This document shows positions 19,956 through 47,643 of a stretch of 64,000 nucleotides of DNA, in pieces. The notes beneath the pieces are model-generated. The model was not told the DNA's origin. It ran no database searches and worked only from the letters and a program-made list of their open reading frames with translations. The first letter of the stretch is position 1; each line of letters opens with the position of its first letter. Both the position numbers and the translations under genes were made by a program. This DNA comes from Escherichia coli (GTDB lineage: Bacteria > Pseudomonadota > Gammaproteobacteria > Enterobacterales > Enterobacteriaceae), in assembly GCF_003334335.1 (NCBI RefSeq), contig NZ_QOWQ01000002.1; one strand, given 5' to 3'.

Positions 19956-20191
19956 GTTCTGTTCTGTGCATCCCGTCACAAATTCCTCGCTTTTGTAATT
20001 CAGGCATTTAATCGCATTTTGTGAGCCTGCTCAAATCTGCCCATTTTGCCTCTCTGGCGGTAATTTACTTTACGTAAAACATGCATACTATGAGCACATG
20101 TTTAAATATGAACACATGTTTAAACCGTCTTTGCAGTATCTATATTCTTGTGGATTGACAGGGTTGGTAATTTTTTACCAGAGGACGTGCT

Positions 20192-23472: not shown

Positions 23473-24132
23473 TTACTGCATCATCCCGGAGAATTTATTC
23501 TCCGGGTCCATCTCCAGCGCCAGTCCTGACAACTGCTTTCTGTTTTTAATGAGATACCCTTTCTTGCTTTTAATTAATAAACCGTCGTGAATGAACTGCG
23601 CGAGAACATATAAAAGATGTCGATAAGAAACGCCTAAATACTCTGCCGCTTGCGTATGCTTTTCGTGATAAAGATCACCTTCCTGCGAGAGTAATATAAA
23701 TGCTGCCAGGCGATTCACTAACGGAAATGATTGATTCTGAGTTAAAGAAACAATATTACGATAATTTTTATGACTTAAGGTGACGCAGAGTTTTCGTAAA
23801 AATAGCGTGTCGTTTAATAACAGCGGACGGTAATGTTTCATAGGGAGCGCAAGGCACCAACACTCTTCAATAGCCTGCACCGCACGCGGTTCATGGTCTT
23901 TATCGATTAACTCAATCTCGCCAATAAAACAGGGGGCGGCAAAGAAATCGATCAGCGACACGCGACCATTAGCTAGCGTGGCGTAAAGCCTGGCGCGGCC
24001 TCGCGTCAGGTAAAACAGCCAGGACGGCTGTTGCCCTTCCTGCACAATGTAGTCACGCGCTAAAAAATGAAACAGCCGCGTATCGGCTGAAACATCCGTT
24101 AAAAAGCAATCCTTAAACGCGGATTCACTCAT
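23473..24132 (-). CDS. yeiL: Crp/Fnr-family transcriptional regulator
   Basis: 219-aa product from internal Met ([10 protein letters not shown]) with C-terminal HTH typical of Crp/Fnr. Confidence 0.85.
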
Positions 24133-27789: not shown

Positions 27790-28647
27790 TCAGGCTACCG
27801 CTTTTTCAGTTTGTTGCGCTTTCAGCCAGGCGATCTCTTCTGCCCAGATATCCGGGTTGATGGTTTCGAGGATCAGCGGAATGCCGTCGAAACGGTCGTC
27901 CTGCATGATCCAGCGGAACGCATCATGACCGATATTGCCTTCACCGAGGCTATGATGGCGGTCAACGCGGCTGCCAAAGGTGCTTTTCGCATCGTTAAGG
28001 TGCATCCCGCGCAGATACTTAAAGCCGACAGTACGGGCAAAATCCGCGAATGTTTTCTCGCATTCGGCTGGAGTACGCAAATCATACCCGGCAGCGAAAG
28101 CATGGCAGGTATCAATGCAGACGCCGACGCGGGATTTATCTTCCACGCCGTCGATAATCGCCGCGAGATGTTCGAATTTAAACCCTAAGTTACTGCCCTG
28201 ACCGGCGGTGTTTTCTATCACCGCTGTCACACCTTGAGTTTTATCCAGCGCAATGTTGATGGATTCGGCAATACGCGCAAGGCAATCCTCTTCTGAAATC
28301 TGCATCAGATGGCTGCCAGGGTGGAAGTTGAGCAAAGAAAGCCCCAGCTGTTCGCAACGCTGCATTTCATCTATAAAGGCATCGCGCGATTTTTCCAGAG
28401 CTTCAGTGACCGGATGTCCGAGGTTAATCAGATAACTGTCGTGGGGAAGAATTTGCGCCGATGTGTAGTGATATTTTTCACAGGCGGCTTTGAATTCATC
28501 GATGGTTTGCGTCGTGAGCGGTGCGGCACGCCACTGACGTTGGTTTTTGGTGAACAAGGCAAACGCGGTTGCGTCGATTTCGGCGGCGCGAATTGCGGCA
28601 TTTGCCAGACCGCCAGCAGCACTAACGTGCGCTCCAATGTATTTCAT
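27790..28647 (-). CDS. nfo: Endonuclease IV (AP endonuclease)
   Basis: 285-aa ORF with conserved His/Asp/Glu metal ligands of the Nfo TIM-barrel family. Confidence 0.93.
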
Positions 28648-29868: not shown

Positions 29869-30750
29869 ATGCACATCACCCTCCGGCAGTTGGAAGTTTT
29901 TGCAGAAGTATTGAAAAGTGGATCAACCACCCAGGCGTCGGTGATGCTGGCGTTGTCGCAATCAGCAGTGAGCGCAGCCTTGACCGACCTGGAAGGGCAG
30001 CTTGGCGTGCAACTGTTTGATCGCGTGGGGAAAAGACTGGTTGTTAATGAACACGGGCGGCTGCTCTATCCGCGTGCGTTGGCATTGCTTGAACAGGCGG
30101 TTGAAATCGAACAACTGTTTCGCGAAGACAACGGCGCGATTCGTATCTATGCCAGTAGTACCATCGGTAACTACATTCTGCCTGCAGTTATCGCCCGTTA
30201 TCGCCATGATTATCCGCAGTTGCCGATTGAACTTAGCGTTGGGAATAGCCAGGACGTGATGCAAGCGGTGCTGGATTTCCGCGTTGATATTGGCTTTATT
30301 GAAGGACCGTGCCACAGCACTGAAATCATTTCTGAACCGTGGCTGGAAGACGAGCTGGTGGTTTTCGCCGCGCCGACTTCGCCGTTGGCCCGTGGTCCGG
30401 TCACCTTAGAACAGCTGGCCGCTGCGCCGTGGATCCTGCGTGAACGCGGTTCCGGCACGCGGGAGATTGTCGATTATCTGTTGCTGTCACATTTACCGAA
30501 GTTTGAGATGGCGATGGAATTAGGTAACTCCGAGGCAATCAAACATGCGGTGCGTCATGGGTTGGGAATTAGTTGCCTGTCGCGACGTGTGATTGAAGAT
30601 CAATTGCAGGCAGGCACATTAAGTGAAGTTGCGGTCCCTCTGCCGCGCCTGATGCGTACGTTGTGGCGTATACATCATCGGCAAAAACACCTTTCCAACG
30701 CGCTACGGCGCTTTCTGGACTATTGCGATCCCGCAAATGTGCCGCGTTAA
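29869..30750 (+). CDS. yeiE: LysR-family transcriptional regulator
   Basis: 293-aa ORF with N-terminal LysR HTH ([20 protein letters not shown]) and divergent arrangement with yeiH. Confidence 0.9.
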
Positions 30751-37726: not shown

Positions 37727-37742
37727 TGTGACTCGATTCACG
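37727..37742. promoter_or_regulatory. CRP-like site upstream of galS
   Basis: tgtgactcgattcacg, TGTGA-N6-TCAC pattern. Confidence 0.55.
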
Positions 37743-37818
37743 AAGTCCTGTATTCAGTGCTGACAAAATAGCCGCCAGCAAGCAGTCATTTACTGCAATC
37801 TCATAACAGGTAGTGAAT

Positions 37819-38859
37819 ATGATCACCATTCGTGATGTAGCGCGTCAGGCTGGCGTCTCTGTGGCAACGGTTTCCCGGGTGCTCAATAACAGCACGCTGG
37901 TCAGTGCCGACACGCGTGAAGCAGTAATGAAAGCCGTGAGTGAGCTGGATTATCGGCCAAACGCCAATGCCCAGGCGCTGGCAACTCAGGTTAGCGACAC
38001 CATTGGCGTGGTGGTGATGGACGTTTCTGATGCGTTTTTCGGCGCGCTGGTAAAAGCGGTGGATCTGGTCGCTCAGCAGCATCAGAAATACGTGCTAATC
38101 GGCAATAGCTATCATGAAGCGGAAAAAGAGCGTCACGCCATTGAGGTGTTAATTCGCCAGCGTTGTAATGCGTTGATTGTTCACTCAAAAGCATTGAGTG
38201 ACGATGAACTGGCGCAATTTATGGATAACATTCCCGGTATGGTGTTAATCAACCGCGTTGTGCCGGGGTACGCCCATCGTTGCGTTTGCCTGGATAATCT
38301 CAGCGGTGCCCGAATGGCGACGCGCATGTTGCTGAATAACGGTCATCAACGTATTGGTTATCTTTCTTCCAGCCACGGCATTGAAGATGACGCCATGCGT
38401 AAAGCAGGCTGGATGAGTGCGTTGAAAGAGCAGGATATTATTCCGCCGGAAAGCTGGATTGGCGCTGGTACGCCGGACATGCCGGGCGGTGAGGCGGCGA
38501 TGGTTGAACTGCTGGGGCGCAATCTACAACTTACCGCTGTATTTGCTTATAACGACAATATGGCCGCTGGCGCACTGACAGCATTAAAAGATAATGGCAT
38601 TGCGATTCCGTTACATCTCTCAATCATCGGTTTCGATGATATTCCCATCGCCCGTTACACCGACCCGCAATTAACGACCGTGCGTTATCCCATTGCTTCA
38701 ATGGCGAAATTAGCCACCGAACTGGCCTTGCAGGGGGCAGCAGGCAATATTGATCCTCGTGCCAGCCACTGTTTTATGCCGACGTTAGTGCGTCGCCATT
38801 CTGTCGCAACACGCCAGAATGCGGCGGCGATCACTAACTCAACAAATCAGGCGATGTAA
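37819..38859 (+). CDS. galS: LacI/GalR-family repressor of the mgl operon (galactose isorepressor)
   Basis: 346-aa ORF with N-terminal LacI HTH ([23 protein letters not shown]); operator-like and CRP-like sites upstream. Confidence 0.93.
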
Positions 38860-38871: not shown

Positions 38872-38887
38872 TGTGAGTGATTTCACA
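38872..38887. promoter_or_regulatory. CRP binding site of the mglB promoter
   Basis: tgtgagtgatttcaca, perfect TGTGA-N6-TCACA. Confidence 0.8.
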
Positions 38888-42986: not shown

Positions 42987-44222
42987 TTACAACGTTACCG
43001 GGTGTTCTTTCTCGCCTTTCTTAAACTTCACTTCCCCGAGCTCAATACAACCCACCGGGCAGACGTGACCACAAAGCAGACAACCCACACATTTCTCGGT
43101 ATTACAATGCGGTGTGCGGGTTTTCTCGCTCCATTCCATCGCCTGGTGACCGCCGTCGTAACAGGAAATATAACAGCGTCCACAGCCAACACATTTATCA
43201 AGATTGATACGGGGATAGACAATATAACTGCGGTCTAAATCTTCCGCCGGGACAATATTGTTATTCGCCAGACCTACCATCTCCTGCAGCGAATCAAATC
43301 CCTGATCGGCGAGATAATGCGACAACCCGCTTGCCATATCTTCCACTATCCGATACCCGTACTGCATGATGCCGGTGGTCACCTGTAACGTTGCTGCGCC
43401 GAGCAATAAAAACTCAGCCGCATCCTCCCAGGTTTCAATGCCGCCGATACCGCTGATTGGGAAATCGCGCAGTTCTGGATGGGTGCGCATTTGCTGAATG
43501 AAGCGCAGGGCGATCGGTTTTACCGCTTTACCGGAATATCCGGAAATACTCGATTTTCCGTTAACGATCGGCATACCGATTTTCTGATTAAGATCGATAT
43601 TGGTGATGGATTTAACGGTGTTAATCGCCGCAATGCCATCTGCGCCGCCGCGCTTCGCCGCCAGCGCCACTTCGCACATATCACCGATATTCGGCGTCAT
43701 CTTCGCCAGCATTGGCAGCGTGGAACCCCGTTTCACTGCCCGACAATATTTTTCTACCAGCTCCGGGCTTTGCCCGACATCGCTACCCATCGCATGAGAA
43801 GTCATTTGCGGACAGGAGAAGTTACACTCGATCATATCCGCGCCAGCTTCTTGCACCAGGCGCGCCAGCTCCTCCCATTGCTGCTCATTTTCCCCCATGA
43901 TCGAAGCGATCAATACTTTGTCCGGGTAATCTTCCTTCAGCCGACGCAGGGCGGCCAGATTCTCTTCCAACGGATGTTCAGCAATCTGCTCCATATTTTT
44001 GAAGCCGATAAAACCGGTATCTTCTTTCACCAGATGATCAAAACGCGGCGAGACTTCGTTGGCGATAAAAAAGCCGATCGTTTTAAACACCACACCGCCC
44101 CAACCTGTGTCGTAGGCTTTGGCACACATCTCATAGCAGTTGCCTACCGGCGAAGAAGAGAGGCAGAACGGGTTGGGAAACTTCACGCCGCAAAAAGTAA
44201 TCGAAAGATCTTTCGTTAACAT
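42987..44222 (-). CDS. preA: NAD-dependent dihydropyrimidine dehydrogenase subunit PreA (dihydroorotate-DH-like, 2x 4Fe-4S)
   Basis: About 411-aa ORF with C-terminal ferredoxin-like Cys clusters ([23 protein letters not shown]); start overlaps preT stop. Confidence 0.92.
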
Positions 44223-45454
44223 GAGCAAGCTCCCTCTAAATAGTGATGAATCGCCTCGGCGGCTTCTTTCCCGGTTTTCACGGCATAGACCACGGTTTTG
44301 TCACCCTCAACAATATCGCCAGCAGCAAAGACTTGCGGGTCGCGGGTCTGGTAATTTTGTGTTTTGATGGTGTTACGCTGCGGCTCTAACTCCGCAAAGG
44401 CATCTAGTCTGGCATGCTGACCGACGGCGAGAATAATTTTATCTGCCGCCATCGTCAGTTCGCCCGATAACCGTACATGCTTAAACGTGACTTTATTGCC
44501 TTCCACGGCTACTGGCGTGAATCCATCGATGATCGAAACGCCCAGCTCCCGGGCGCTGGTAAACTCTTTTTCGCTTGCCGGAAACTCATCTAACTCTTCA
44601 CGCGCTACGCAAGTTACCGCCTGACAGCCGAGAACTTTCAGCGTGCTGGCTACGTCCATCGCGACATCACCGCCGCCGATAATTAATGCGCTTTGTGGAA
44701 TGCTGATATCGCCTTGCGCCTGTCGTGCACGTTGCAAGAAGTCGACGGCAATCTCAACGTCACTATGCTCAAACAGCGGTAGCCCGGAACCGCTTGATAA
44801 CCCCACGGTGACCAGTACCGCGCGGTTTTCTGCTTTCAGCTGCTCAAGGGTGAGTGTGTTACCGACTTCGTTGTTGCACTTAATGGTCACGCCCATTTTT
44901 TCAATACGGGCGATCTCTGCATCCAGCACTGATTGCGGTAACCGGAATTGCGGAATACCGTTACGCAACCAGCCACCGGGGTGCGCTTCTTTCTCATAAA
45001 TCGTGACGTCATAACCCTGGTTTGTCAGTGTCACACTGGCCTGCAATCCGGCAGGACCTGCGCCAATAATCGCGACTTTGCCGAGCGTTTTAGTACCGGG
45101 CTGATAAATTTCCATTCCGGTTTGTTGTTCAAAATCAGTAACAAAACGCTGTAAGCGGCCGATATCAATGGGAGCATCAACACCGGCACGGGTACAACCG
45201 CTTTGGCATAATTTCTCCGTCGGGCACACTCTGGCACAAACGGCACCGAGGGCATTATTTTCGCGAATTGTCTCGGCAGCGCCTTTAAAATTACGAAAGT
45301 AGATTGAGCGAATAAATTTCCCCGGATCGGTCTGTGCCGGGCAAGCCTGACTACAGGGAGCGTCGTGACATAATAAACAGCGAGAGGCTTCTTTAATCGC
45401 CAGTAAAGACGTAAAAGCCGGAGTGAGTTCATCCAGATAATTTTGTTGCGGCAT
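44216..45454 (-). CDS. preT: NAD-dependent dihydropyrimidine dehydrogenase subunit PreT (GltD-like)
   Basis: 412-aa ORF with N-terminal Fe-S Cys motifs and FAD/NAD Rossmann motif (IIGAGPAG). Confidence 0.92.
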
Positions 45455-45547
45455 GTGATCTTCCTTAATGCTATAGGTAATTAAGGCGAGCGTTTAGTAA
45501 ATAATAATGTACTGATATTAAGGCTAAGCGTGCGGGGGAATTTAAAC

Positions 45548-45563
45548 TGTGAAAAGATTCACA
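45548..45563. promoter_or_regulatory. CRP-like site upstream of preT
   Basis: tgtgaaaagattcaca, perfect TGTGA-N6-TCACA about 95 bp upstream of the preT start. Confidence 0.55.
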
Positions 45564-45647
45564 AATAGCTGCGGTTAGGAATGTGATATCCGCAGCTTAT
45601 CAGGTGAAGTAATAATTATTCTCAATAATTAACTGGAGAGGGGAATA

Positions 45648-47643
<1,996 letters not shown>

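Follow-up and report, generated by a model that had tools for sequence, protein, structure and literature searches.

Which signal turns on the preTA operon of Escherichia coli, and where does its transcription begin? The question is raised by an exact TGTGA-N6-TCACA palindrome, the consensus core of a cAMP-CRP site, and by a GC-rich inverted repeat beside it, both of which lie in the 193-bp spacer between yeiS and preT (yeiT), the first gene of the operon. Is the palindrome a CRP operator of preTA; if so, what kind of promoter does it serve, and does the inverted repeat belong to that promoter or to something else? We approached these questions computationally in a stretch of 64,000 nucleotides of E. 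coli DNA (hereafter the window), which runs reverse to the standard E. coli map and matches E. coli K-12 (strain BW25113) with 100% identity across positions 45400-45950. The ATG of preT is at 45454 on the minus strand, and the features discussed below are collected in Table 1. RegulonDB treats sanA-yeiS and yeiTA (that is, preTA) as distinct transcription units, and a search of Rfam with both strands of 45300-46000 (E <= 1) returned no matches, i.e. no known riboswitch, leader or small RNA.

Table 1. Features of the yeiS-preT region and CRP sites elsewhere in the window; identities to K-12 were measured over the 13 non-Escherichia (Citrobacter-group) loci.
Feature	Position	Strand	Basis or remark	Identity to K-12
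sanA	45890-46609	-	ORF list; RefSeq annotation	
yeiS, DUF2542 protein, gene 5' of preT	45648-45887	-	ORF list; RefSeq	
Stem-loop AGCUGCGG, 15-nt loop, CCGCAGCU	45567-45597	- (yeiS/preT sense)	dG -12.5 kcal/mol	
Extended CRP site, 22 bp	45545-45566		core centre 45555.5	0.85
CRP core TGTGA-N6-TCACA, TGTGAAAAGATTCACA	45548-45563		read directly; minus (coding) strand TGTGAATCTTTTCACA	
Conserved block GCTTAGCCTTAA	45518-45529	-		0.97
Candidate -10 TAGCCT	45521-45526	-	within conserved block	
Transcription start predicted from TAGCCT as the -10	45513-45514	-	geometry only	
Reported 5' end of b2146 mRNA	45498-45501	-	RACE/DMTSS and RegulonDB position	
Leader hairpin CCTTAAT (45480-45486) / ATTAAGG (45463-45469), N10 loop	45460-45486	-	folds	
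Leader and Shine-Dalgarno region of preT				0.76
Remaining yeiS-preT spacer segments				0.37-0.49
preT (yeiT), NAD-dependent dihydropyrimidine dehydrogenase subunit	44216-45454	-	ORF list; RefSeq	
preA	42987-44228	-	ORF list	
mglB CRP site	38872-38887		published CRP 16-mer	
galS CRP sites (two)	37727-37742, 37812-37827		published CRP 16-mers	
cdd CRP sites (two)	47703-47718, 47753-47768		published CRP 16-mers	
yohJK CRP site	48913-48928		published CRP 16-mer	
yeiL/rihB CRP site	23664-23679		published CRP 16-mer	
fruA CRP site	19965-19980		published CRP 16-mer	
lysP/yeiE CRP site	30603-30618		published CRP 16-mer	

The palindrome that a first-pass annotation had picked out from the letters is present on direct reading, with 10 of 10 consensus positions matched, and the distance of about 95 bp from the preT start codon that it had given also holds: the preT-proximal edge of the core lies 94 bp, and its centre 101.5 bp, upstream of the ATG. 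The exact pattern occurs twice in the 64-kb window against an expectation of 0.03 from 100 dinucleotide shuffles, none of which contained two copies, and the second copy is the known CRP site of mglB. The window is rich in CRP sites from RegulonDB and SELEX; for each of them the published 16-mer stands in the window without a mismatch (Table 1). Additionally, positions 28467-28482 (AGTGATATTTTTCACA) carry a CRP core with one mismatch that is not among the published 16-mers checked.

The CRP site of preTA is in fact already known. The RegulonDB list reproduced in supplementary file 5 of Shimada et al. 2011 (PMC3105977) gives TGTGAATCTTTTCACA as an activator site of yeiTA at -57.5, so that the catabolite control of preTA suggested at first reading agrees with existing knowledge. 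In the same study, genomic SELEX-chip (Table 1 and supplementary file 4 of PMC3105977) placed a cAMP-CRP peak in the yeiS/yeiTA interval on TGTGAAAAGATTCACA, at 2.23195 Mb; in other words, cAMP-CRP binds the preT 16-mer in vitro. PhyloScan had put b2146 (yeiT) in its Crp top 20 in 2007, from alignments of E. coli and S. typhi (PMC1794230). CRP ChIP-seq, which the first-pass annotation had named as a check on the site, is positive as well: in enteroaggregative E. coli (EAEC) 042, data from 2025 (PMC12363807 supplement) show a preT peak on TGTGAATCCTTTCACA, at -100.5 from the start codon, so that CRP occupies the site in vivo in another strain that carries a spacer variant. The score of this peak is 56, which is weak, about ninefold below the 500 of mglB. 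The 'Y' beside preT in that supplement probably marks a target already annotated as CRP-regulated in MG1655. One detail of the published record differs from the DNA: file 5 of PMC3105977 prints aaacgcagctatt ... gtttaaattcaaa on either side of the yeiTA site, against aaccgcagctatt ... gtttaaattcccc in the window and K-12, a mismatch that is probably an artefact of transcription or conversion.

How old is the site, and with which gene does it travel? One scan of representative genomes yielded 19 preT loci, from 6 Escherichia lineages, 12 genomes of Citrobacter type and 1 Pseudocitrobacter; it recovered no Salmonella orthologues. TGTGA and TCACA are exact upstream of preT in 19 of 19 loci, and the 6 bp between them vary (ATCTTT, ATCCTT, AACCTT, ATAGAT). 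Fixed half-sites around a varying spacer are the pattern expected under selection on protein contacts, and the palindrome is a real, deeply conserved CRP site. Outside Escherichia, identity to K-12 stays high in the CRP 22-mer, in the block GCTTAGCCTTAA and in the preT leader, and falls in the rest of the spacer (Table 1). In Pseudocitrobacter vendiensis (locus L013, 1454-2500) yeiS is gone and about 0.9 kb with other ORFs separates sanA from preT, but preT still has its CRP site, TAGCC block and leader. The module thus goes with preT and not with yeiS.

Several further elements turned up in these spacers. The sanA-preT gap of P. vendiensis encodes a 152-aa ORF that looks helix-turn-helix-like by eye, and at about 2290-2340 of the same locus there is a long AT-rich inverted repeat, absent from E. 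coli, with a Fur-box-like match (4 of 19 positions mismatched, 0.3% of shuffles as good) that we regard as suggestive. A Fur box in the AT-rich block that follows yeiS in K-12 is unsupported, the best match there having 6 of 19 mismatches, which 7.8% of shuffles equal. The Citrobacter spacers (L006-L019) hold an extra 29 bp with a perfect palindrome, AATGGT-T-ACCATT, some 60-90 bp upstream of the CRP site; it too is absent from E. coli.

If CRP acts here, what is the promoter? The promoter scan found no strong sigma-70 promoter on the preT strand, as expected of an activator-dependent preTA promoter. The candidate -10, TAGCCT, is conserved at all 19 preT loci; it shares only 3 of its 6 letters with TATAAT, keeps both critical -10 positions (A-11 and T-7), and has the CRP site in place of a -35. 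From its first base (T, 45526) to the CRP centre is 29.5 bp, the same distance as for TATGAT at mglB, and this spacing is free of indels in 18 of the 19 loci (in the remaining one, L019, it is 1 bp shorter), with many indels further downstream. The fixed spacing and a TAGCCT placed as at mglB favour class II for preTA, and on this geometry we put somewhat better than even chances on a class II promoter with CRP at about -41.5/-42.5 and a start near 45513/45514. Other identities for the conserved block did not hold up when compared by eye; a sigma-54 promoter would need a -24 GG that is missing, and for a RutR box the half-sites are wrongly arranged.

The chief competitor to class II keeps the same operator and moves the start to 45498-45501, with an AT-rich -10 (TACATT or CATTAT) and CRP at -54.5 to -57.5, as RegulonDB has it. 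In its favour are the annotated position, -57.5, which implies a start at 45498, and the sole experimental 5' end, listed as 'b2146 -47 Tttactaaacgctcgccttaa' in the supplement of Mendoza-Vargas 2009 (PMC2760140; modified RACE/DMTSS), i.e. 47 bp from the ATG at 45501, which puts the CRP centre at -54.5. These two supports may share a source: the RegulonDB yeiTA entry seems to come from PMC2760140, and its 'activator' label appears to stem from a motif scan around the RACE-mapped 5' ends. The method of that study left 5'-triphosphate ends undetermined and used homopolymer tailing, so the 5' end may be processed or truncated from an upstream start (PMC2760140); RACE of this kind mixes primary and processed ends, and the tailing is ambiguous at a TTT run such as the one here. 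Conservation also speaks against the annotated architecture: its -10 region shows little of it already among E. coli strains (K-12 versus O157) and is rich in indels between genera, and an enterobacterial repetitive intergenic consensus (ERIC) element is inserted exactly here in about 41% of E. coli genomes. Furthermore, CRP reportedly activates from positions near -41.5, -61.5, -71.5, -82.5 and -92.5, and by these spacing rules -54.5 to -57.5 falls on the wrong face of the helix. We therefore think the RegulonDB architecture rather unlikely, albeit well worth keeping in view, and the annotated promoter position of -57.5 probably mis-annotated. The class I positions (-61.5, -71.5, -82.5, -92.5) fit no better, since the reported 5' ends give -54.5 or -57.5; class I at -61.5 in particular, with TATTAT as the -10 and 45494 as the start, was rejected because the 5' end on record lies upstream of that start and the hexamer is not conserved. 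Arrangements other than class II or the RegulonDB geometry take up the remaining probability. Among sources of start-site data, Latif 2018 has no preT entry.

Downstream of the candidate promoter, the preT leader can fold into a hairpin (Table 1) that overlaps the preT Shine-Dalgarno sequence AAGGAAG (45460-45466). Both of its arms are invariant in Escherichia and Citrobacter and hence offer no covariation; a second copy of GCCTTAA occurs in the -10-like block at 45518-45524. In UTI89, yeiT and yeiA are up by a factor of 2 or more when ryhB is mutated, but direct pairing of RyhB with the preT leader found no support in a crude test, in which 54% of shuffled targets equalled the duplex (-23.1).

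The leader is also a site of strain polymorphism. In many Escherichia strains an ERIC element of 125 bp is inserted at 45498|45497, which is the start position of RegulonDB, and K-12 is without it; carriers include the loci L022 (356-673), L002, L003 and L005 (upstream of 2501). We take the insert to be ERIC on the strength of GTGAGTCCCCAGGAGCTTACAT and AAGTAAGTGACTGGGGTGAGCG, presumably the ERIC core (the complement of the ERIC1R primer and the ERIC2 primer sequence). The full-length ERIC-containing spacer is present in 2,202 of 5,426 complete E. coli genomes. Insertion sequences have entered the spacer as well: in one locus (L021, NZ_CP062895.1) IS1 separates the yeiS stop from the hairpin, and in another (L023, NZ_CP119402.1, strain MRE162) it lies 46 bp upstream of preT, and the gene on its far side is yohD, so that the CRP site, yeiS, sanA and cdd are all missing from the position upstream of preT. 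Within the coding region, Shimada et al. 2017 reported a SELEX peak of the sigma-28 holoenzyme (type D) inside yeiT at K-12 position 2233032, about 1.1 kb downstream of the CRP site.

What, then, of the inverted repeat? The 7-bp stem described at first reading (gctgcgg at 45568-45574, ccgcagc at 45590-45596) is there, and an extra A-U pair extends it to 8 bp, 6 of them G-C. It begins 51 nt past the yeiS stop, ends 3 nt before the CRP core and stands on the sense strand, as a terminator stem would, and the 71 nt around it fold with a z of -4.58, with 0 of 200 shuffles as stable. The first-pass annotation had suggested that this hairpin could terminate yeiS transcription, and that idea is no more than plausible: it agrees with where the stem-loop lies, with its GC-rich stem and with a tail that is in part rich in U (UAUUUGUG, 5 U in 8 nt, interrupted), but every Escherichia sequence has a loop of 15 nt, and loops of intrinsic terminators are usually 3-8 nt. 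The terminator scan did not call the stem-loop, its loop exceeding 8 nt, and among RNA 3' ends the supplements of Adams et al. 2021 have no entry for yeiS, preT or sanA. The 6 distinct Escherichia sequences all pair along the whole stem (one strain with a basal G-U), and 5 of 15 loop positions vary; E. albertii shows one compensatory C-G to U-A double change, which is not significant, as 89 of 500 shuffles do as well. In Citrobacter the homologue is absent, and a different, weaker 7-bp hairpin, AAUGCUG-N5-CAGCAUU, is found instead, with a hypervariable loop, no U tract and, in two species, a U-G wobble that pairs on the sense strand only. The hypervariable loop and the wobble favour a role at the level of RNA on the yeiS/preT sense strand. 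We read the stem-loop as probably a weak, non-canonical terminator of sanA-yeiS, or else a stem that stabilises the 3' end of that transcript, and the separate transcription units of RegulonDB are consistent with this reading.

Taken together, we are confident that the palindrome is the cAMP-CRP operator of preTA, with class II the likeliest arrangement and the stem-loop probably a separate RNA element at the 3' end of its neighbour. When glucose is scarce, cAMP-CRP would bind the high-affinity preT site and help RNA polymerase to start transcription of the dihydropyrimidine dehydrogenase genes, and preTA would join its neighbours cdd and mglBAC among the CRP targets that serve nucleoside and sugar catabolism. 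The likeliest mode is class II, with CRP centred upstream, about 41.5-42.5 bp from a start near 45513/45514, and with the weak, conserved -10 TAGCCT but no usable -35. The GC-rich stem-loop would act apart from this, in RNA, and either weakly terminate the sanA-yeiS transcript or shield its 3' end from exonucleases.

Three other accounts of these elements have to be weighed against the operator reading. CRP might bind the preT site with little or no effect on preTA transcription, the binding being non-regulatory or architectural. Genome-wide studies have found many CRP-bound sites with no demonstrated regulatory output, the EAEC 042 ChIP-seq peak is modest, and we found no direct expression evidence for preTA in the literature: no crp/cya or glucose expression test came to light, the likeliest sources lying beyond the search. 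The rise of yeiT in O157:H7 as cultures in glucose minimal medium pass from exponential to stationary phase gives activation correlative support only. Against silent binding, the half-sites are perfect in three genera and stay at a fixed distance from the -10-like block, around which spacer and flanks have drifted, which is the pattern that selection on a working promoter produces, and the module remains with preT after yeiS is lost; we consider silent binding improbable. Improbable to a greater degree is the idea that GCTGCGG-N15-CCGCAGC is no RNA hairpin and instead a DNA operator for some dimeric regulator beside CRP. The repeat does adjoin the CRP site, with a gap of 3 bp, and its loop is constant in length and fairly conserved within Escherichia, but it is missing outside that genus, where the Citrobacter interval holds a non-homologous hairpin with a variable loop and the sense-only wobble; moreover, the change in E. 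albertii compensates pairing, and we recognised no known motif in the repeat. (A second CRP half-site, a TCACA in the hairpin loop, was considered and dropped, being partnerless and not conserved in other E. coli.) The converse idea, that the palindrome itself acts as RNA and forms a tandem-hairpin terminator of sanA-yeiS with the GC hairpin, deserves hardly any weight. The palindrome can indeed fold as a 7-bp hairpin, UUGUGAA-UCUU-UUCACAG, followed by the U/A-rich run UUUAAAUU; yet that hairpin is weak (-6 kcal/mol), its arms are the exact CRP consensus in every species, the site is kept in Pseudocitrobacter without yeiS, and CRP binding is on record from both SELEX-chip and ChIP-seq.

We are interested in this locus for what lies beyond the known site, namely the gap-free TAGCCT geometry, the Escherichia-specific hairpin and the ERIC polymorphism of the leader. 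Bacteria inactivate the anticancer drug 5-fluorouracil through the preTA operon, and neither of the two papers on preTA and 5-fluorouracil that we consulted mentions its regulation. Given a conserved, high-affinity CRP site, the availability of sugar in the gut should modulate preTA. A bolder and quite tentative proposal, which we would sooner bet against than for, joins several parts: that -57.5 is wrong, that the promoter is a class II promoter at TAGCCT, and that ERIC insertion (about 41%) together with rare loss of the CRP site to IS1 makes preTA expression depend on strain and on diet (glucose/cAMP). If it were true, the strength with which gut E. coli inactivate 5-fluorouracil would be affected.

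How does the preTA control region compare with known systems? The RegulonDB yeiTA site is the same sequence, TGTGAATCTTTTCACA, in DNA 100% identical to K-12, and our account departs from it in the reading of the promoter only, with CRP at -41.5/-42.5 from TAGCCT where the annotation has -57.5. Intrinsic terminators resemble the stem-loop on the preT side of yeiS in their GC-rich stem, here on the sense strand 51 nt past the stop and followed by UAUUUGUG; unlike them, it has a 15-nt loop and an interrupted U tract. The ERIC element of the leader is absent from the K-12 window and is a strain polymorphism at 45498|45497. Another instructive comparison is with cdd, which takes part in pyrimidine salvage and catabolism, is activated by CRP from -42.5 and is 2 kb from the preT site; cdd, however, has tandem CRP sites and is repressed by CytR, whereas a single CRP site was seen at preT. 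The likeness to the class II promoter of mglBAC extends to an exact core and a -10 at 29.5 bp from its centre, with CRP at mglB annotated at -41.5 (PMC3105977). The mglB -10, TATGAT, matches the consensus at 5 of 6 positions where TAGCCT matches 3 of 6, and the class II status of preT is a prediction from this shared geometry.
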